Part shown: positions 2,339-45,543 of the stretch, piece after piece
Layout of the letters: every line of letters starts with the position of its first letter
How positions within the stretch are numbered: position 1 is the first letter of the stretch
Source of the DNA: an uncultured Candidatus Saccharibacteria bacterium
Lineage (GTDB): Bacteria > Patescibacteriota > Minisyncoccia > Phycocordibacterales > Zambryskibacteraceae
Length of the DNA: 64,000 bases
Reading direction: 5' to 3'
NCBI GenBank assembly: GCA_964618905.1
Contig: CAZUDK010000001.1
Span: 92,614 to 156,613, forward strand
Notes under the pieces: generated by a model
Seen by the model: the letters and a program-made list of their open reading frames with translations, nothing else
Databases searched by the model: none
Told to the model about the DNA's origin: nothing
Translations under genes and position numbers: made by a program

Positions 2339-2893
2339 TTAATTATCTAATACTCTCTGAGATACAAGAGTCTGGAGAGTAAACTCAGATTGACTGTTTT
2401 CATCCGACCCGGCCTGGCCGCTGACCTTTATGAAAACTTTAGGCTGCAAAGCTGGAGACTGAGAACCGGCTCCGAGCACATAAAAGCTCAAATCTTCGAT
2501 AACCACTTCTCCTCCCGTAACAGCAGCAAAGCTTGTGCCACCATCTGTTGATTTTTCTATCGTATCATCTGAAAGTCTGTAGACTATCTGCTCGTCATCA
2601 CTGGATAGGAAACTGACATAATCATCCCCAGAAGGGCAGTTCTGCGGAGAAGTTATAGTTCCGGAAGATCCGCAGTGATAATTCTCTCCAAAACGCATTT
2701 CGCGCGCCATAGATTCCATAGCTAAATTAACATTAGACATGACTGCTTTAAGGGAACGAGATTTTCTATTCAGATCAAAGATTCCCAAGATAGATCCCAT
2801 ACTTACTGTCATTATCAGCATGAATAAAGACATGGATGTTATCAATTCCACCAGCGTAAAGCCTCCTGTTCCTTTTAATTTTATCTGCTTCAT
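2339..2893 (-). CDS. type IV pilin-like minor pilin (GGFTLVELITSMSLF)
   Basis: G|FTLVE motif after a basic leader. Confidence 0.7.
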   Translation of the reverse strand: MKQIKLKGTGGFTLVELITSMSLFMLIMTVSMGSILGIFDLNRKSRSLKAVMSNVNLAMESMAREMRFGENYHCGSSGTITSPQNCPSGDDYVSFLSSDDEQIVYRLSDDTIEKSTDGGTSFAAVTGGEVVIEDLSFYVLGAGSQSPALQPKVFIKVSGQAGSDENSQSEFTLQTLVSQRVLDN

Positions 2894-3582
2894 TGTACTG
2901 ATATGTATCCAGTCTTATAAACCGACACCGACCTTTCAAGGTCTGACAGAGAAGAAAGCTTTATTTTGGCACCTTTGACATTCGACGGCGAAATTTGGGA
3001 ACCGGAGCTATTAAAGAATTTCAAGTTAGCAGTTGTATTAGGTCTTATGAAAGTAACAGCAAGACGCCCTATATTACAGTCCTCGCTATCATCAGTATGT
3101 ATGACACAAAGAGAGTCTATGGTATTGCCATTCGAAATAGCTGTCTTTTCAAGACATTCTGAGGAATCGTCTACAGGACACGACCAGTCATCTTCATATT
3201 CCCTATCATCATCCAAATCCACAAAGAACACATAAGAATCATCTGCACCTCCGGCGCCACTTAAACGAAATTCTACACCGTATGCCGAATTGAAATCGCT
3301 CGAATCCGGAGCTGTCTGCCTGACACTGACTCCATATATCTGAGCTTGAGATATGGAAAGACTAATGTCCTCAGCAAGATTAGAAAGAGAAGCACCTTCT
3401 GTGTAGGTGTGCTGATTAGAGAGGACGACAGATGAGATGATAGCTACTATCGACAGCGAAATCAGCATTTCAGGAAGAGTAAAACCGCCTCGCCTTAAGC
3501 TAGCCGAGGCGGATCCCTTTGACTCGCTTTGCTCTCTTAGGGTAGTCAACCTTTTTTTGTTTTTAGAAAAAAGTCGATACAT
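2890..3582 (-). CDS. type IV pilin-like protein with an unusually long (~32 aa) leader before G|FTLPEM
   Basis: GFTLPEMLISLSIVAII prepilin motif. The leader coding region contains a GC-rich palindromic element (see repeats). Acidic Cys-containing C-terminal domain. Confidence 0.6.
   Translation of the reverse strand: MYRLFSKNKKRLTTLREQSESKGSASASLRRGGFTLPEMLISLSIVAIISSVVLSNQHTYTEGASLSNLAEDISLSISQAQIYGVSVRQTAPDSSDFNSAYGVEFRLSGAGGADDSYVFFVDLDDDREYEDDWSCPVDDSSECLEKTAISNGNTIDSLCVIHTDDSEDCNIGRLAVTFIRPNTTANLKFFNSSGSQISPSNVKGAKIKLSSLSDLERSVSVYKTGYISVQ
3485..3512. repeat. GC-rich palindromic element copy (CCGCCTCG-N12-CGAGGCGG) inside a pilin leader-peptide coding region
   Basis: Same 8-bp arms as the recG copies; spacer CCTTAAGCTAGC; encodes the ..SASASLRRGG.. 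segment of the 2890..3582 pilin leader. Confidence 0.75.
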
Positions 3583-6064: not shown

Positions 6065-7165
6065 CTACATCATCTTCTCTAAAGTTCGCGGATTGGCTGA
6101 ATACAGCATGGCATTCTCTGCAGTAATTTCCCCTGAACGCACCAAATTCGCCAAGCATCTGTTTAAGTCTATCATGCCCAACTGAGAACTCGTCTCTATA
6201 ACAGAATCTATTTCCTGCGTGCGCCGATCTCTTATGAGGTTTGATATAGCACTGTTATTTATCAGAAGCTCATAAGCCGGTATCAGCCCTCCGGATATCC
6301 TTGGTACAAGCCTTTGCGAGAAAATTCCCAAAAGACTTGAAGAGAGCTGGAGCCGGATTTGGCTTTGCTGATCTGCCGGGAAAGAGTCAATAATGCGGTC
6401 CACTGTTTGGCCGGCAGTGTTGGTGTGAAGTGTAGAGAGGACGAGGTGTCCGGTTTCTGCAGCCGTAACGGAAGCTGATATTGTTTCAGGATCGCGCATC
6501 TCCCCTATCATCAAAACATCGGCATCCTGACGGAACATGCCTCTGAGAGCAGTGTGAAAATCCGGAGTATCAATCTTGACTTCTCTCTGATCGATAATGG
6601 ACTTCTTAGGTTCGAATATATATTCAATCGGATCTTCGATAGTGATGATATGCTCAAGTCTTTCAGTATTAATACTCTCAACCAAAGATGCCAAAGTGGT
6701 AGACTTACCGTGGCCGGCTGGCCCAACCACCAAGAAAAATCCTTGCTGCCGCTTGGCAAAAGTTTCAAGAATCGGAGGCAAGTTAAGCTCTTCGAATGTC
6801 TTTATGCGAGAAGGTACAAGCCTCAGAGCGATATTCATTTTACCGATGGCAAGATAGGCATTGCCGCGGAAGCGGCCCCCGCCCGACCGGACGGTCGTTC
6901 GGGCGGATTTATCCAAATGGCTGTAAGCAAAGTTGACTTCTTTTTCTCCGGCTAGCTCAGCTTTTTTCTCCGGTGTAAGAAAGATTGCCAAGAGAGTATC
7001 CATATCCTGCTTGGTCAGGGCAGGCATTTTTATAATAGGCACTAAAAATCCCGATACTCTTATAACCGGAGGCTTGCCTTCAGAAAGATGGAGATCTGAA
7101 GCACTCTCTTTTATAACTATATCGACGAGCTGGTCTAAAAGATCTGACTTAGGTACTTGTTCCAT
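6065..7165 (-). CDS. pilT: twitching-motility/retraction ATPase PilT
   Basis: 366 aa; Walker A GPAGHGKSTT; Asp box; AISNLIRD PilT signature; no N-terminal GSPII_E_N domain. Confidence 0.85.
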   Translation of the reverse strand: MEQVPKSDLLDQLVDIVIKESASDLHLSEGKPPVIRVSGFLVPIIKMPALTKQDMDTLLAIFLTPEKKAELAGEKEVNFAYSHLDKSARTTVRSGGGRFRGNAYLAIGKMNIALRLVPSRIKTFEELNLPPILETFAKRQQGFFLVVGPAGHGKSTTLASLVESINTERLEHIITIEDPIEYIFEPKKSIIDQREVKIDTPDFHTALRGMFRQDADVLMIGEMRDPETISASVTAAETGHLVLSTLHTNTAGQTVDRIIDSFPADQQSQIRLQLSSSLLGIFSQRLVPRISGGLIPAYELLINNSAISNLIRDRRTQEIDSVIETSSQLGMIDLNRCLANLVRSGEITAENAMLYSANPRTLEKMM

Positions 7166-13355: not shown

Positions 13356-13441
13356 GGAGACGTGGCTGAGTGGTCGAAAGCGCCTCACTGCTAACGAGGT
13401 AGGGTGTAAAAGCTCTCCAGGGTTCGAATCCCTGCGTCTCC
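13356..13441 (+). tRNA. tRNA-Ser (anticodon GCU)
   Basis: Hand-folded cloverleaf: acceptor GGAGACG/CGTCTCC, anticodon loop CUGCUAA, long variable arm, T-loop GGTTCGAATCC, discriminator G; CCA not encoded. Confidence 0.8.
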
Positions 13442-13467
13442 GCAACGATTTGCAAGAAAGACCTAAA
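13426..13467 (+). repeat. 42-bp direct repeat, copy 1 (3' 16 nt of tRNA-Ser plus downstream terminator hairpin)
   Basis: GAATCCCTGCGTCTCCGCAACGATTTGCAAGAAAGACCTAAA is identical to 13604..13645. Confidence 0.85.
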
Positions 13468-13698: not shown

Positions 13699-15906
13699 AT
13701 GAGTCCGGAAACTAAGCTTAAAGATTTCTCACGTCTTAACCCTTTTCAAGAGAAAGCTCTTAAGAAGCTGGGTCTGGAAACTGTAGAAGACCTCCTATAT
13801 CACTTCCCTGCTCGCTACGCAGACACGGCGGATGTGAAGAATATTGCAGACTTAGAGAAAGGTGAGAAAGCAGTAGTCTTCGGCAAGCTCTCCAAATTAA
13901 AGACAGCAAAAGCATTTAGAAAAAAAATTCCACTATCCGAAGCATATCTTGAGGATGATACCGGCAAAATCAAGATAGTCTGGTTCTATCAAGCATACCT
14001 AGCCAAGATGCTCGAAGAAGGCTCGCATGTAAGAGTCGAAGGAAAAGTGAGCGAGAGGGCCGGCGAACTGTACTTCTCGAACCCAAAAGTCGAGAGCGCG
14101 CCGACTCTCTTCGCGCAAGGCAGATCAGACATTCTATATCCTGTGTATCCCGAGGCTCGAGGCATCAGCTCGGACTGGCTGTACCACAAAATAGAGCGCA
14201 TCCTCGCTGCTAAAGTTCTCGACGAGCTCGAAGATGTCATACCTCAGGAAATTTTAGAAAAATATTCTCTCCCCTCGCTGAAGTCTGCACTTATTTATAT
14301 ACACACTCCGCAGAAACTTTCGGATGCTGAAGCTGCCAGAAAAAGATTTGCCTTCCAAGAAATCTTTTTAATACAACTCGATAGACAAAGAGAGAAACAG
14401 GAATTCAGAAGAAAGGAAGCATTCATCATAGACAAGGACTCCACTGATATAAAAAATTTCATAGAGCGCTTCCCTTTCAAAGCGACCGGCGCGCAGAATA
14501 AAGCCATTGACCAAATACTGGCGGATTTTAAAAAAGGCTATCCTATGACACGACTGCTTGAAGGTGATGTTGGCTCGGGTAAAACTGCTGTTGCCGCTAC
14601 TGCTGCATACGCCGTAGCAACTTCTAGGCCCAAAGGCCAGGACTTCGGCACGCTTCAGGTTGCCTACATGGCGCCGACAGAAATTCTCGCCCAACAGCAT
14701 TTTGAATCTTTCATTAATTTATTCAGACACTTGCCGATAAACATTGCTCTTATCACAGGGACAGGAGTGCGCAAATTTCCTTCAAAGGTAAATCCTGGTA
14801 GCTGGACAAGCATTTCCAAGAGCCAGCTTCTAAAGTGGGTTGCCAATGGCGAAATTTCCATAGTGATAGGCACTCACGCCCTCATTCAAAAGAACGTGAA
14901 GTTCAAGCACCTGGCGTTTGCCATCATCGACGAACAGCACCGCTTCGGCACAAAGCAAAGGCAGAAGCTCGCAGGCGGGCCCGCCTCGACTCGCGAAGGC
15001 TCGCCGACGCGAGGCGGGGAAGAGAATATCCCTCATCTTCTCTCTATGACGGCAACGCCTATCCCCCGCACTTTGGCTCTCACTCTTTACGGCAATCTTG
15101 ATCTTACTCTTCTCGACCAGATGCCTGCCGGCCGCAAACAGATACAGACAGAGATAATCGCACCCGAGAAAAGAGAGCGGGCTTACGAGAAGATGCGGCA
15201 AGAGCTTGCGGCCGGCAGGCAAATGTATGTAATCTGCCCGCGCATTGACCCGCCTCGCCTTGATGAGCAAGGGCGAGTCGAGGCGGGCGAACCCGATCCA
15301 AGCAAAGAAACTTCCATCCAAGCCAAATCTGTTAAAGAAGAAGCAAAAAGGCTCAAAAAAGAAATCTTCCCCGAATATGAGATCGGTATTCTCCACTCCA
15401 AGATGAAACCTGCGGAAAAAGAGAGTATTATGACCGACTTCAAGAACGGCAAAATAGATATTCTTGTTTCTACATCGGTAGTTGAAGTGGGAGTAAACGT
15501 AGAGAACGCTTCACTGATCATCATCGAAGGCGCGGAACGCTTCGGCCTCGCTCAGCTTCATCAGCTTCGCGGCCGAGTCCTGCGAGGCTCTCACCAGCCA
15601 TACTGCTTTATTTTCTCAGAGGGCAAATCGCAGAAAACTTTAGACAGGCTGGAAGCAATTAAAACCGCTAAAAACGGATTCGAACTTGCCGAATTCGACC
15701 TCTTGCAGAGAGGTGCAGGAGAGTTGAGCGGCAGCAGGCAATGGGGTATTTCCGACCTCGGCATGGAAGCTATAAAAAATATAAAGATGGTCGAGGCCGC
15801 CCGCACTGAAGCGACTAAACTTATAGAAAAAGATCCGGAGCTTAAAAAGCATCTACTGTTAAAAGAGAAGCTGACTGAAAGCTCTTCCAAAATTCATTTT
15901 GAATAA
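13699..15906 (+). CDS. recG: ATP-dependent DNA helicase RecG
   Basis: 735 aa; N-terminal wedge domain; helicase motifs GDVGSGKT, DEQHRFG, TATPIPRT; carries two in-frame GC-rich palindromic insertions. Confidence 0.9.
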   Translation: MSPETKLKDFSRLNPFQEKALKKLGLETVEDLLYHFPARYADTADVKNIADLEKGEKAVVFGKLSKLKTAKAFRKKIPLSEAYLEDDTGKIKIVWFYQAYLAKMLEEGSHVRVEGKVSERAGELYFSNPKVESAPTLFAQGRSDILYPVYPEARGISSDWLYHKIERILAAKVLDELEDVIPQEILEKYSLPSLKSALIYIHTPQKLSDAEAARKRFAFQEIFLIQLDRQREKQEFRRKEAFIIDKDSTDIKNFIERFPFKATGAQNKAIDQILADFKKGYPMTRLLEGDVGSGKTAVAATAAYAVATSRPKGQDFGTLQVAYMAPTEILAQQHFESFINLFRHLPINIALITGTGVRKFPSKVNPGSWTSISKSQLLKWVANGEISIVIGTHALIQKNVKFKHLAFAIIDEQHRFGTKQRQKLAGGPASTREGSPTRGGEENIPHLLSMTATPIPRTLALTLYGNLDLTLLDQMPAGRKQIQTEIIAPEKRERAYEKMRQELAAGRQMYVICPRIDPPRLDEQGRVEAGEPDPSKETSIQAKSVKEEAKRLKKEIFPEYEIGILHSKMKPAEKESIMTDFKNGKIDILVSTSVVEVGVNVENASLIIIEGAERFGLAQLHQLRGRVLRGSHQPYCFIFSEGKSQKTLDRLEAIKTAKNGFELAEFDLLQRGAGELSGSRQWGISDLGMEAIKNIKMVEAARTEATKLIEKDPELKKHLLLKEKLTESSSKIHFE
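14980..15018. repeat. GC-rich palindromic element copy (CCCGCCTCG-N21-CGAGGCGGG), in-frame inside recG
   Basis: Perfect 9-bp inverted repeat flanking 21 nt; 39 bp = 13 codons (encodes ..PASTREGSPTRGG..), located between helicase motifs II and III. Confidence 0.8.
15249..15287. repeat. GC-rich palindromic element copy (CCCGCCTCG-N21-CGAGGCGGG), in-frame inside recG
   Basis: Same 9-bp inverted repeat and 21-nt spacer geometry as 14980..15018; local GC is far above the gene average. Confidence 0.8.
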
Positions 15907-15952: not shown

Positions 15953-16026
15953 CCGCCCTTAGCTCAGTTGGTTAGAGCACAGAGCTTATATCTCTGCGGT
16001 CCTTGGTTCGAGTCCAAGAGGGCGGA
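15953..16026 (+). tRNA. tRNA-Ile with genomic anticodon UAU (reads AUA)
   Basis: 74-nt cloverleaf: acceptor CCGCCCT/AGGGCGG, D-arm GCTC-AGTTGGTTA-GAGC, anticodon stem CAGAG/CTCTG with loop CTTATAT (T at 34, A at 37), T-loop TTCGAGT. Confidence 0.7.
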
Positions 16027-17210: not shown

Positions 17211-19208
17211 TTACGCCTGATGCTCTATGTCTTTCTTCTTTTTGAGCGGTATGCTGTGCGCCACCAGTATGTCTTCGAACTCCTTCTGCTCTATAGTTTC
17301 CTTCTCAATAAGACGCACCGCTATTGCTTCTAACACTTTGTCGTGGCTTTTGATTATATCCTCCACTTTCTCCATGGCTTCGCTCATGATCTTTGATACC
17401 TCGGCATCTATTTCTGCACTGACTCTTTCCGAATATTCCTTGCTGCCGATTCCTGCTCCATAGAGTGGCTTGCCCTCAGGACCTTCGAGAGCCACCGGCC
17501 CCATCTTCTCGGACATGCCGTACTTGGTAACCATATTCCTGGCAAGAGCAGTGGAAACCTGCAAATCATTCGATGGGCCTGTTGTTAGGTCGTCGAACCT
17601 ATCTTTCTCAACCACATATCCGCCGAGAGCAACTGCAATATCATCTAAAAATTCTTTCTTTGACTGAAGCTTTTTGTCTTCCAAAGGAAGCTTGAGCACA
17701 TAGCCGGCAGCACGGCCACGTGAAATTATAGAAATTTTGTGCACTGGATCGGCATAAGGCAAGACACTGGCAACCAGAGCGTGACCAGCCTCATGATAGG
17801 CAGTAATCTCTTTCTCTTTCTTGGAAAGAATGTGGCTCCTGCGTTCCGGGCCGAGCATTACTTTTTCTATAGAGCGAATGAGGTCAAACTGAGCAACCTT
17901 GTTCCTGCCTTCTCTGGCGGCGAGAATTGCCGCCTCGTTCATAAGAGAATACAAATCTGCTCCGGAAAATCCCGGGGTGCGCTCTGCCACCAAGGCCAAG
18001 TTAACATCTTCGGCAAAAGGCTTCTTTCTGGCATGCAGGGTCAAGATCTCTTCCCTGTCTTTCCTGTCCGGCAGATCAAGAGTTACCCGCCTATCAAAGC
18101 GGCCCGGACGAAGGAGAGCAGGGTCAAGAACATCCGGCCTGTTGGTAGCTGCCATGACTATCACTTTTTCATTCGGCTCGAAGCCGTCCATCTCCACCAG
18201 AATTTGATTCAAGGTCTGCTCTCGCTCATCATTGCCTCCGCCGACGCCAGTTCCGCGCACTCGGCCGACTGCATCAATCTCGTCTACGAAAATAATTGCC
18301 GGAGCCATCTTCTTGGCCATGTCGAAGAGGTCTCTGACGCGGCTGGCCCCCACACCGACAAACATCTCCACGAACTCAGAACCGGAGATAGAAAAGAAGG
18401 CTACGCCGGCTTCGCCGGCGACGGCACGGGCAAGCAGAGTCTTGCCTGTGCCTGGAGCCCCCATCAGCAAAATACCTTTCGGAATCCTAGCTCCGATGTC
18501 TAAAAACTTCTTAGGATTTTTCAAAAAATCCACCACCTCCCTCAGCTCCTCCTTTGCTTCCTTGGCACCAGCCACATCTTTAAAAGTAATCTTCTGAGAT
18601 TTATCATCAGGAGATATCATCCGCGCCTTAGACTGTCCAAAAGAAAATGCTTGCATGCCAGCACCTTTAACCTGCCTCGATAGAAACCACAGGAAAAAGA
18701 CGATAAATATTATTGGCAAAAGAATAGGAGCAAGAGACGCAAACCAGAAGAAAAATCCTCGATTGCTTAGAACATCAATGGTTACATTTGAGAGTGCTTC
18801 AGGATTTATATCGTAGTTGGACAGAGTAGTTGTCAGGGCTGTGCCCTCTTCTTTTTTAGACAACTTCTTAGAACCATCTAAGTATGTTATTTCAAGGTCG
18901 TCTCCTTTGACAGCAATGCTCTCAACCTGTCCCGAAGAAATATCTCCTGCAAGTTCAGAAATGGCTATCTCCTCGCTCTTATCGACGTTGCTTGCAATAA
19001 AAGAATAAGAAGAGACGAGCAGCAGGAAAATTATTATAGCCAAAAGCCCCTGGCCCAAAGGATTTTGGCCGGAAGGTCCTCTGCCGCCTTTTTTCAAAAT
19101 TATTTTCTTTATGGGCTTTTTGATTTGGTTCTTTGAAGGAGTAGCTGGCTTGCGATTTCCTGGCATTTTGCTGGAGAGATAGAGGTTCATATACGGCGTA
19201 TTATACAA
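17211..19208 (-). CDS. ftsH: ATP-dependent zinc metalloprotease FtsH
   Basis: Two TM segments; AAA+ Walker [21 protein letters not shown]; SRH; HEAGHAL zinc motif. Confidence 0.95.
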
Positions 19209-19269: not shown

Positions 19270-19524
19270 ATGCAGTATGTATATGTATTGCAAAGCAAAG
19301 AGGATAATGATTTTTATATTGGCTGTACTAGAAACCTCAAGGATAGACTGAGGCTGCATAATGCAAAGAAAGTTGCTTCTACCAAAAAGCGAGTTCCGTT
19401 TGTGTTAATTTACTACGAAGCATATATTGATAGTAAAGATGCATACCAGCGAGAGATGTTTTTAAAAACTGGCTGGGGTAGAAATCATCTTCGCAAAACA
19501 TTAAGCAACTTTCTTAATAGGTAA
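19270..19524 (+). CDS. GIY-YIG nuclease-domain small protein (paralog 1)
   Basis: YVYVLQS...DFYIGCTRNLKDRLRLHN GIY-YIG core motif; 84 aa. Confidence 0.7.
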   Translation: MQYVYVLQSKEDNDFYIGCTRNLKDRLRLHNAKKVASTKKRVPFVLIYYEAYIDSKDAYQREMFLKTGWGRNHLRKTLSNFLNR

Positions 19525-19543: not shown

Positions 19544-19987
19544 ATGCCAAATCTAGCTGATAATCCGCGAGCCAAATTTGATTACGAGATTCTGTCTCGC
19601 TTCACTGCAGGCATCGAGCTTCTTGGCTTTGAAGTCAAAGCTGTTCGCCAAGGCAAAATGAATCTGAAAGGCTCTCATGTATCCATAAGAGGTGATGAAG
19701 CTTTTTTGATTGGAGCAAGTATATCCCCCTACCAGCCTGCAAACACTCCAGAAGGATACGAACCTGAACGCACACGCAAACTCCTCTTGTCCAAGAAAGA
19801 AATAAAAGAACTTGCAGAGGCTGAAGACACTAAGGGTTTGACAATAGTGCCTATTTCAGTGTATAATAAAGGCAGATTTCTGAAGGTGGACATCGCCATA
19901 GCGCGCGGAAAAAAGAAATTTGATAAGCGCGAATCGATAAAAAAGCGAGACATCGAGAGGGATATAAAAAGAACTTTGAAAAGATAA
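19544..19987 (+). CDS. smpB: SsrA-binding protein SmpB
   Basis: 147 aa; conserved FDYEILSRFTAGIELLGFEVKAVR core; basic C-terminal tail; immediately upstream of ssrA. Confidence 0.9.
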   Translation: MPNLADNPRAKFDYEILSRFTAGIELLGFEVKAVRQGKMNLKGSHVSIRGDEAFLIGASISPYQPANTPEGYEPERTRKLLLSKKEIKELAEAEDTKGLTIVPISVYNKGRFLKVDIAIARGKKKFDKRESIKKRDIERDIKRTLKR

Positions 19988-19993
19988 CGTGGT

Positions 19994-20263
19994 ATGCCCT
20001 ACTTTGTTTATATCCTTATAAGCAAGAAGGACCACAAGCTTTACGTAGGATGCACACGAGACATTAAAAAACGTCTTGAGCGTCATAATAATGGAGCGGT
20101 AATTGCCACAAAGCACCGCCGACCATTAGAACTTCTGCATATAGAAAAATTCGATAAGAAATCTGATGCTTTTAATCGAGAAAGATTTCTCAAAAGCTTG
20201 TGGGGTTCTAGATTCAAGAAAAAATTAATTTCTGAATATAAACAAAGTAGGGCAAATCAATAA
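19994..20263 (+). CDS. GIY-YIG nuclease-domain small protein (paralog 2)
   Basis: YFVYILISKKDHKLYVGCTRDIKKRLERHN; paralogous to 19270..19524. Confidence 0.7.
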   Translation: MPYFVYILISKKDHKLYVGCTRDIKKRLERHNNGAVIATKHRRPLELLHIEKFDKKSDAFNRERFLKSLWGSRFKKKLISEYKQSRANQ

Positions 20264-20332: not shown

Positions 20333-20732
20333 GGGGATGCTCGGCCTAGACAAGAAGAGAAGGCAGGTTGATGCGCAAGAGAGCTCGGGTGACTCTTAAA
20401 TCCGCTCGAAATCTTAAATGCAAAATCAACTTTTGCTTCAGTTGTTTCTCCGTACTTTACGGCAAACGACTTCCAGTTCGCTTACGCTAGAGCTTAACGC
20501 TCGCTAGGCCTTCTGGCGCGGTTCCGCAAGATGCTTTGAGTAGCGGACTCCGTGTTATTACACAAAGCTCTGGATGCTAGTTCCTCACTAGTATCCGAAA
20601 CTTAGAGGATAGAGGCTTGAGGGCTTTCGTTTGCTTTATACCTCACACCTCGAACTTCAATGAAGCACACTACCTTGCGTAGACTTCATCCTGTCCCCTT
20701 CTTGCACGGCGGTTCGACTCCGCCCATCTCCA
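20333..20732 (+). ncRNA. ssrA: tmRNA (ssrA)
   Basis: 5' GGGGAUG pairs (one G-U) with 3' CAUCUCC-A; tRNA-like T-arm GGCGGTTCGACTCCGCC; internal reading frame GCA AAC GAC ... TAA (ANDFQFAYARA*) at 20462..20497; directly downstream of smpB. Confidence 0.75.
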
Positions 20733-20746
20733 CTAGCAAAAACATT

Positions 20747-38911: not shown

Positions 38912-39046
38912 ACTTGAAGGTAACTTTGTCACAGATAATTTCCTCGCCGTAGCTCGGAAATTTCCGCGACTCCGCCTCGCGCCCGACTACTGCTGTAGTC
39001 GGACTGAGTGCGCTCCGGCCGTAAGACCTACCTAAATAAGCTCCGC

Positions 39047-45015: not shown

Positions 45016-45543
45016 CTAGGCGACCCCCCGAATGTTCTCCGGGACAATCATCTGGACATTCTCCGCTCGCATACCTCGCGGGGTCTTCTTAACATCGAAG
45101 GAGACCCTTTGACCCTTCTCGAGCTCCTCGATGTAATCAGGAAGAGCTGTCTGGTGCACGAACACGTCGGTGAGCTTCGGATCATCCCGCTTAATGAAGC
45201 CGAATCCCCGCCCGTTGCTGAACCATGCCACCGTTCCGAAGACTCCGATCTCGATGATCTCGGCCTTCGGATAAGGCGTTTCACCAGCAGACTCTGCGGC
45301 AGCCGGTGGAAATGAGGCAGCTGCGCGTCTCCCGTGACGACCATGGCGAGCTTCCAATTCCCTGAGCTGTTCCACGTCACCCCTGTCGCGCCGCCTCGAT
45401 TTCTTTTTGCCCACAGTCCGAGCTCCTTGAAAGGGTTTAAGAAAACAGAACAAACTCCGGCCGATACCATAACACTCAGATGAGCTAAAATCAATGACCA
45501 ACGGGAAAACAGTTCGGATAGACAACACAGAAGCGCCCCGCAT
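45016..45543 (-). CDS. cold-shock-domain protein with Arg-rich N-terminal extension (GC-rich gene between fusA and tuf)
   Basis: C-terminal GTVAWFSNGRGFGFIKRDDPKLTDVFVHQTAL...GQRVSFDV is a CspA-type cold-shock domain. The N-terminal ~100 aa are Arg/Ala-rich and low-complexity; the start codon is uncertain. Confidence 0.6.
   Translation of the reverse strand: MRGASVLSIRTVFPLVIDFSSSECYGIGRSLFCFLKPFQGARTVGKKKSRRRDRGDVEQLRELEARHGRHGRRAAASFPPAAAESAGETPYPKAEIIEIGVFGTVAWFSNGRGFGFIKRDDPKLTDVFVHQTALPDYIEELEKGQRVSFDVKKTPRGMRAENVQMIVPENIRGVA

Follow-up and report, generated by a model that had tools for sequence, protein, structure and literature searches.

A 64-kb stretch of the genome of an uncultured Candidatus Saccharibacteria bacterium (GenBank assembly GCA_964618905.1, contig CAZUDK010000001.1, positions 92,614 to 156,613; hereafter the window), with a mean GC content of about 44%, carries short GC-rich imperfect palindromes inserted in frame into protein-coding genes, two of them in the helicase gene recG. 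A 24-base signature built from the two recG copies recurs at 120 or more loci, overwhelmingly in the Patescibacteria, or Candidate Phyla Radiation (CPR). We consider it likely that these elements are non-autonomous selfish DNA, and we infer that their autonomous partner is a cassette combining such a hairpin with a small GIY-YIG nuclease gene. The family is distinguished by being a predominantly intragenic, cross-lineage group of GC-rich micro-palindromes that is associated with a candidate GIY-YIG/tRNA master cassette.

Four copies were identified in the window, and all four are intragenic. The two copies in recG, which represent type A of the family, have in common the geometry CCCGCCTCG-N21-CGAGGCGGG over 39 bp. 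Copy 1 (14980..15018, CCCGCCTCGCGTCGGCGAGCCTTCGCGAGTCGAGGCGGG) lies on the minus strand in its canonical orientation and encodes PASTREGSPTRGG in frame with recG. Copy 2 (15249..15287, plus strand) reads CCCGCCTCG CCTTG ATGAG CAAGG GCGAGT CGAGGCGGG and encodes PPRLDEQGRVEAG, also in frame. The two run in opposite directions: the asymmetric 3' end GCGAGTCGAGGCGGG is found in copy 2 as written and in the reverse complement of copy 1. A short variant at 3485..3512 (no strand assigned), located in the leader of a prepilin-like gene, is a 28-bp palindrome of the form CCGCCTCG-N12-CGAGGCGG and shares CCGCCTCGCCTT with recG copy 2. The fourth copy (6879..6906, plus strand, CCGCCCGACCGGACGGTCGTTCGGGCGG) was revealed by a scan of the window for perfect-stem hairpins; it belongs to a sister family, type B, and lies in frame in pilT, where it adds the ten residues LDKSARTTVR. 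In the same scan, the CCGCC-type palindromes were all within open reading frames (ORFs), and the remaining GC-rich hairpins were all intergenic, with terminator-like stems and runs of A and T alongside.

These sequences are strongly over-represented in the window. For the octamer CCGCCTCG, 10 occurrences were counted where 0.94 would be expected, a number that none of 100 dinucleotide-preserving shuffles reached, and CCGCC...GGCGG palindromes occur seven times against 0.66 in shuffles. The recG copies have GC contents of 79% and 72% and both fall within the strongest 30-bp GC spikes of the window. Folded as single-stranded DNA, the window copies gave z-scores of -3.2 to -4.4, the latter for copy 2. 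A hidden Markov model (HMM) of the family detected copy 1 (E=2.8e-10, minus strand) and copy 2 (E=2e-8), and matched the short variant at 3485 only weakly. No Rfam family was found at the elements, either at the gathering threshold or at E-values up to 10.

Comparison with orthologs identified the palindromes as lineage-specific insertions. The recG gene (13699..15906, plus strand) encodes 735 residues, and the modal ortholog, with dozens of examples of exactly this length, has 709, that is, 735 minus 2 x 13, or 26 fewer than the window protein. In an alignment of 16 RecG proteins, PASTREGSPTRGG and PPRLDEQGRVEAG each corresponded to a clean 13-column gap in all 15 others, including an ortholog 79% identical to the window protein, and both segments were also gaps against the solved Thermotoga maritima RecG structure (1GM5). 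The first insertion lies between helicase motif II (DEQH) and motif III (TATPIPR), and the second directly after the VICPRID strand. An AlphaFold model of the window RecG, poor overall with a mean predicted local distance difference test (pLDDT) value of 63, placed both in coil at pLDDT <50. The pilT gene (6065..7165, minus strand) encodes 366 residues against a modal 355, and an ortholog 84% identical to its product (P0122) lacks the segment LDKSARTTVR. The prepilin-like gene (2890..3582, minus strand, 230 residues, with an N_methyl domain) carries the short variant right before the GFTLPE cleavage motif of its leader peptide, where the palindrome is read on the minus strand as SASASLRRGG and accounts for a 30-bp insertion. 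This insertion is absent from eight of nine aligned homologs; the exception, P0242 (63% identical), has SASARRRRD at the same place. The palindrome constitutes the entire insertion, with no recognisable target-site duplication. An AGGCGGG repeat flanking recG copy 1 was not general among the copies.

The original prediction, made from the letters of the window alone, had described the copies in recG and at 3485, giving the recG copies 9-bp arms around a 21-nt spacer, a gain of 13 codons each, positions in loops between helicase motifs and a GC content far above their surroundings. Coordinates and geometry proved exact, the case is stronger than it was put there, and the folding, the ortholog alignment and, with a longer signature, the pattern search that it had suggested came out in its favour.

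Short insertions rich in Pro, Ala, Arg, Gly and Ser were also seen in the same or other loops of RecG orthologs P0005, P0036, P0048, P0054 and P0082 and of PilT orthologs P0123, P0126, P0130, P0142 and P0181. The insertions of P0054, the sole ortholog among those to be checked as DNA, are 36-bp type-B palindromes. The recG gene of the window has tRNA genes on both sides (13356-13442 and 15953-16026).

The pattern search proposed in the original prediction, in its plain 16-base form, was uninformative in large collections: its matches on viral contigs were chance matches, and 115 of 120 listed matches fell in contigs of at least 55% GC. We therefore used the 24-base signature CCCGCCTCG-N(5-30)-GCGAGTCGAGGCGGG, taken from both recG copies, to scan contigs of one genome per species. 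This search yielded at least 120 loci with 129 copies, 106 of them unique; copy counts, lengths and neighbours of type A given here rest on the matches listed. The matches are overwhelmingly in Patescibacteria/CPR, with several metagenome-assembled genomes (MAGs) carrying many each, and come from Moranbacteria, Saccharibacteria, Parcubacteria/Paceibacterota, Doudna-, Woese-, Levyi-, Roizman- and Gottesmanbacteria, as well as Kaiser-, Zambryski-, Giovannoni-, Buchanan- and Portnoybacteria. This abundance in many CPR genomes contradicts the earlier expectation that such a family would be out of place in a streamlined genome. Other matches fell in MAGs with the unverified labels Planctomycetota, Gammaproteobacteria, Bdellovibrionales, Spirochaetia, Elusimicrobia and, in one case, an archaeon. 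Some contigs labelled as non-CPR have their best match in CPR contigs (L124 against L163, for example, with cases such as 71% amino-acid identity over 562 residues), and the record labels or MAG binning of the loci labelled Gammaproteobacteria, Bdellovibrionales or Bathyarchaeia may be unreliable. The loci labelled Planctomycetota have distinct element subfamilies.

The length of type-A copies ranges from 30 to 52 bp, with modes of 45, 42 and 39 bp, and their consensus is CCCGCCTCGCGTCGACGAGCGGTCGTCTCCGCGAGTCGAGGCGGG. Their inner stem shows compensatory changes from GG/CC to AA/TT, and folding z-scores are -3.2 to -5. Copy 1 of the window is one mismatch away from a copy that lies, in an unrelated genome, within a leucyl-tRNA synthetase-like gene (locus L225). 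Type B has the form CCCGCCCGA..TCGTTCGGGCGGG, written with its bulge as CCCGCCCGA..TCGT-TCGGGCGGG, and is common to the window pilT and to recG of locus L001, whose RecG is 67% identical to that of the window; arms and TCGT bulge are the same. In L001, two 36-bp type-B elements make up the two 12-residue insertions of its own RecG, at positions different from those in the window. The same locus also has intergenic type-B copies, one of them inverted with compensatory stem changes. The 22-kb locus of a related genome, L002 (RecG P0030), contains neither elements nor GIY-YIG genes and is uninformative either way.

Neither a target-site duplication nor a strong target motif was found in the flanks of 128 contexts. 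Flanking inverted repeats of at least 7 bp, which place a type-A copy at the tip of another hairpin, were found in 6.3% of cases against 0.46% of controls, an enrichment of about 14-fold. Filled and empty ATGTTCCACG^TGGAACAT sites were observed within one locus in L142 and L169, and likewise TGCGAATCTA^CGAAATTA sites in L202; type A is thereby shown to have inserted into the middle of a different repeated palindrome.

The reading frame of the host genes bears directly on the fate of the copies. When 131 copies (the 129 from other genomes and the two in the window recG) were classified by ORF context, about half lay within long ORFs. The length was divisible by three in 60 of 66 such copies against 35 of 65 elsewhere, and ORF-internal copies were almost always free of stop codons. 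Both features point to intragenic copies that are kept in the mRNA and translated as loops of 10-15 residues rich in Pro, Ala, Ser, Thr, Arg and Gly. Copies occur in both orientations and are read in all three frames, and the resulting series of peptides are unrelated (PASTRG..STRGG, PPRVDE..RVEAG, PASRR..ASRGG and ARLAS..ESRRA), which argues for selfish insertions that are translated. The hosts are unrelated housekeeping genes, among them polA, ligA, secA, murC, rnr, thyA, mnmA and a uvrD-like helicase gene. This is the pattern that purifying selection on random selfish insertions would leave, with survival only where an insert is tolerated, as in linkers between motifs, a leader peptide that is cleaved off and loops at the surface, and it argues against a selected peptide function, splicing or bypass.

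A candidate partner emerged from the genes around the elements. In an all-against-all clustering of 2,577 ORFs from 120 listed element loci, no neighbour was dominant; the largest cluster, and the sole recurrent neighbour, consisted of stand-alone, single-domain GIY-YIG proteins of about 85 residues. Five such proteins, including both encoded in the window, matched PF01541 with 51-69 bits against a gathering cut-off of 22.6; matches to TIGR01453 (group I intron endonuclease) were below its cut-off. Among the element-selected loci, six to seven of ten GIY-YIG ORFs had a type-A copy at most about 75 nt upstream. In every such case the 5' end of the tRNA gene downstream of the ORF was duplicated over 22-36 bp, and the type-A copy lay within that duplicate, in the D-loop region; within this left copy of the direct repeat, the hairpin sits at varying positions and in both orientations.

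A second sample of 80 metagenome loci was selected by GIY-YIG homology with a narrower alignment (A5), the broad alignment (A4) being too divergent for a locus search. A GC-rich hairpin was present within 200 nt upstream of the nuclease gene in 49 of 77 cases, against 12% of random control windows, and in 37 of 72 the 150 nt downstream held a tRNA gene (for Glu, Leu, Met or Asn). In the recurrent layout, a tRNA 5' fragment carrying a hairpin is followed by the GIY-YIG ORF, and this in turn by an intact tRNA gene (Glu, Leu or Asn) with identical 5' sequence; this layout was seen at L153, L186, L189, L196, L208, L223, L257, L264, L293, L307 and other loci. In this sample, hairpin type and nuclease cluster (at 60% identity) were perfectly partitioned: clusters totalling 23 proteins had 16 type-A hairpins and none of the CCTGCC type (CCTGCCTGCCGGCAGGCAGG), and clusters totalling 50 proteins had 35 of the CCTGCC type and none of type A. 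In one MAG, RA.bin89, solitary intragenic copies (L135, L154 and L190) exist alongside a type-A cassette (L223).

Several of these loci have further peculiarities. The second hairpin family, CCTGCCTGCCGGCAGGCAGG, is tied to other GIY-YIG clusters and found upstream of their ORFs at L144, L208 and L268-L321, and a few short versions of it lie within long ORFs (L233 6941-6958, L240 2724-2741 and L246 1954-1974). In L189 (1780-2900, minus strand), tRNA-Glu pseudogene fragments are riddled with several different hairpin insertions, and two type-A copies and two GIY-YIG genes cluster around one intact tRNA-Glu gene. At L268, L270 and L284, the GIY-YIG ORF appears to split a tRNA-Met gene, with the 5' half and a hairpin upstream and with the final codons of the ORF, GGC TCA TAA, overlapping the 3' half at its anticodon loop; a complete copy of this tRNA was not evident right at these loci.

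The window itself contains two stand-alone GIY-YIG genes (19270..19524, 84 residues, and 19994..20263, 89 residues, both on the plus strand). They bracket smpB (19544..19987), the second lying between smpB and the gene for transfer-messenger RNA (tmRNA; 20333-20735), immediately upstream of which the group is located. They have the look of homing-type genes that stand free and have settled at the smpB-ssrA locus. Their products are of the protein class that is linked to the hairpins in other genomes. No element adjoins them, and they are therefore candidate trans-acting factors only.

Taken with the layout of the cassettes, these associations suggest how the elements could spread. The autonomous unit would consist of a hairpin and the gene for the stand-alone nuclease of about 85 residues, resident at tRNA genes: a tRNA 5' fragment with the hairpin in its D-loop, the GIY-YIG ORF, and the intact tRNA gene. 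The nuclease would make breaks or cut extruded hairpins, and repair would copy the hairpin from the resident copy into the break. Solitary copies would be scattered in this way, as the transposases called RAYTs (REP-associated tyrosine transposases) are thought to scatter repetitive extragenic palindromic (REP) sequences. The arrangement resembles that of REPs and RAYTs, with a GIY-YIG nuclease as the enzyme, and we infer that this nuclease mobilises the hairpins. Tentatively, and with rather less than even confidence, we extend the proposal to a REPtron-like system in which a minimal GIY-YIG nuclease of about 85 residues takes the place of the Y1 transposase. Each nuclease subclade would keep its cognate GC-rich hairpin at its home site, in a duplicated tRNA 5' fragment, and disperse it over the whole genome as micro-insertions of 30-50 bp that are translated in frame, continually remodelling the loops of essential proteins across the CPR and some other lineages.

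Several points weigh against this reading. The case for movement of the elements comes from sequence comparison between genomes. Both GIY-YIG genes of the window are without an adjacent hairpin and belong to a subclade different from the type-A-linked ones, and no cognate cassette of the source genome was seen within the 64 kb. The target consensus is weak, with G at -1 in 45% and a pyrimidine at +1 in 81%, and does not amount to a clear signature of a cleavage site. The GIY-YIG query was derived from proteins found beside type-A copies, and co-inheritance within the cassette could therefore explain the association without an enzymatic relationship. A hairpin upstream of the nuclease gene may persist by interrupting the flanking direct repeat, protecting the cassette from deletion. 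Finally, the non-CPR labels of MAGs are those of the records.

The elements might also be mobile with only an indirect link to the nuclease, which we hold to be unlikely though worth serious attention. GIY-YIG homing cassettes would create short direct repeats of tRNA fragments, and those with a left repeat that happens to be interrupted by a hairpin would resist deletion and persist, or D-loop DNA would be a preferred target; a different, unseen enzyme or template switching during replication would spread the elements. The variable position and both orientations of the hairpin inside the left repeat agree with this, as do the copies at the tips of other hairpins, the empty ATGTTCCACG^TGGAACAT sites next to filled ones in the same locus and the lack of hairpins at the GIY-YIG genes of the window. 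A perfect partition between hairpin families and nuclease clusters is nevertheless hard to obtain from generic survivorship alone, and the 120 listed loci held no other recurrent neighbour gene. That the hairpins are host-beneficial modules, whether as stem-loops in the RNA that control the stability or translation of an mRNA or as flexible linker peptides under selection, seems improbable. Their strong hairpin potential, the terminator-like intergenic copies just 3' of genes in L001 and the repeated use of the same RecG and PilT loops by different genomes would suit such a role. Yet the DNA is read in three frames on both strands into unrelated peptides, close orthologs function without the insertions, the hosts are unrelated housekeeping genes, and Rfam gave no match.

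CPR bacteria carry insertions in their rRNA genes that are excised, and this, together with the location of GC-rich hairpins inside AT-richer coding sequence, could suggest that the insertions are mini-introns removed from the RNA or are skipped in translation like the byp elements of Magnusiomyces mitochondria, which are translationally bypassed. Removal or bypass would need neither a length divisible by three nor freedom from stop codons, yet all but six of the 66 ORF-internal copies have such a length, and we judge this explanation to be very improbable. Chance or convergent runs of GC-rich codons, or an assembly artefact, can be regarded as effectively refuted. The plain 16-base pattern is indeed common by chance in high-GC DNA, but the counts in the window are far above those in shuffles, the 24-base signature with its conserved internal sequence recurs in low-GC genomes from many independent assembly projects, and the insertions are exact, in frame and codon-aligned.

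The selfish micro-elements described here resemble several known systems, among them Rickettsia palindromic elements (RPEs), reportedly described by Ogata and colleagues in 2000. RPE-1-type elements are 100-150 bp long and restricted to Rickettsia. Like RPEs, the window family is palindromic, found in frame in housekeeping genes of small genomes, translated, tolerated in surface or linker regions and without a transposase of its own. The alignments of RecG, PilT and the prepilin and the predominance of lengths divisible by three (60/66) correspond to the in-frame insertions, absent from orthologs, by which RPEs are recognised. The likeness that the original prediction had drawn with RPEs holds for this behaviour and not for membership. 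The window copies measure 28-39 bp and the 129 copies elsewhere 30-52 bp, in contrast to about 100-150 bp with a long palindromic consensus; no sequence relationship was noted, RPEs having been compared by description and Rfam giving no match; and the host belongs to the Patescibacteria/CPR, not to Rickettsia. The window family also differs in being GC-rich in a genome of about 44% GC, in occurring in many phylum-level CPR lineages and in its link to a GIY-YIG/tRNA cassette. RPEs are also discussed in PMC3733652.

REP sequences, with the mosaic elements (BIMEs) that they form and their RAYTs, are likewise imperfect GC-rich palindromes of 20-40 bp with an asymmetric bulge and many copies, some of them intragenic. 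Replication and repair genes in particular are known to host intragenic GTAG and CGTC REPs, and the CGTC REPs are reported to have no transposase dedicated to them (Di Nocera et al. 2013, PMC3733652). The cassettes also follow the logic of a REPtron, a cognate protein gene being flanked by its own hairpin type. In contrast to GTAG REPs, no GTAG 5' tag was present in 128 contexts, and TAG followed the 3' end in only 17 of the 128; in contrast to a predominantly extragenic location, all four window copies and about half of the classified copies are within long ORFs; and the linked gene encodes a GIY-YIG nuclease instead of a Y1 (HUH) transposase. The ORF clustering of the 120 listed loci revealed no recurrent neighbour other than GIY-YIG, and no Y1_Tnp profile scan of whole genomes was made. 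In CGTC-tagged REPs the CGTC is terminal and unpaired, the stem of 8-9 bp begins with A-T pairs, the loop has 4-5 nt and there is a CCA tail (PMC3733652); in type A, CGTC is internal (CCCGCCTCG-CGTC-GAC...), the outer stem is CCCGCCTCG, and there is neither an AT start nor a CCA tail. Hairpins of the type GTCATTCC(C/G)G..C(G/C)GGAATCCAG, which were seen in the CPR-labelled contigs L152, L157, L164, L183, L232, L137 and L234, fit the published CGTC-tagged REP family (Neisseria dRS3-like). Some of these have a type-A copy at the tip, and two flank the GIY-YIG gene in L234.

Miniature inverted-repeat transposable elements span 70-300 bp and have terminal inverted repeats of 15-30 bp matching a parent insertion sequence (IS) and target-site duplications, whereas the window family is 28-52 bp long, has no detectable target-site duplication and consists of the palindrome as the whole insertion. 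No IS partner was found in the ORF clustering of the 120 listed loci. A free-standing GIY-YIG endonuclease that acts at tRNA genes is known in SegB of phage T4 (PMC2330249). In both cases a stand-alone GIY-YIG gene is lodged among tRNA genes, and SegB acts on tRNA-gene DNA. SegB, of about 220 residues, is encoded by a phage and includes a DNA-binding domain, and no family of dispersed hairpins goes with it; the hairpin-linked proteins are chromosomally encoded, have about 85 residues and consist of nothing but the catalytic domain. Mitochondrial GC clusters and palindromic micro-repeats are short GC-rich hairpins that invade AT-richer compact genomes, coding regions included (PMC7218506, PMC4524435). 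These clusters and byp elements are organellar and unrelated in sequence, and some are bypassed or untranslated, whereas the divisible-by-three constraint of the window family indicates translation. In full-text searches of the literature, no account of this family in the CPR came up. The elements behave like RPEs and intragenic REPs but differ from them in size, tags and location, and they do not seem to be homologous to either.

Isolated half-sites at 17930, 37825, 38972 and 45391 were rejected as members of the family, the family HMM not detecting them. The original prediction had counted two of these as related, at ~38995 and ~45385; they are in fact at 38972, in the intergenic region 3' of rplL, and at 45391, about 55 nt upstream of the csp start codon. 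The half-site at 17930 is conserved Fts coding sequence. In the cold-shock gene, an open frame of 175 codons (45016-45543, minus strand), the cold-shock domain is confined to residues 103-165; the true start of csp is probably an internal ATG, which would place the CCGCCTCG half-site in the csp 5' leader.

Selfish DNA does occur in the reduced genomes of the CPR, as abundant micro-elements small enough to live inside essential genes. These elements would explain many of the short lineage-specific insertions rich in Pro, Ala, Arg, Gly and Ser in CPR proteins, and their sequence signature can be used to annotate such insertions and to mask them in alignments, phylogenies and structure predictions. 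The co-segregation of hairpin type and GIY-YIG subclade at tRNA genes provides a testable candidate for the long-missing mobilising enzyme of palindromic repeats that lack a transposase, and also suggests a possible new small DNA-manipulating enzyme.

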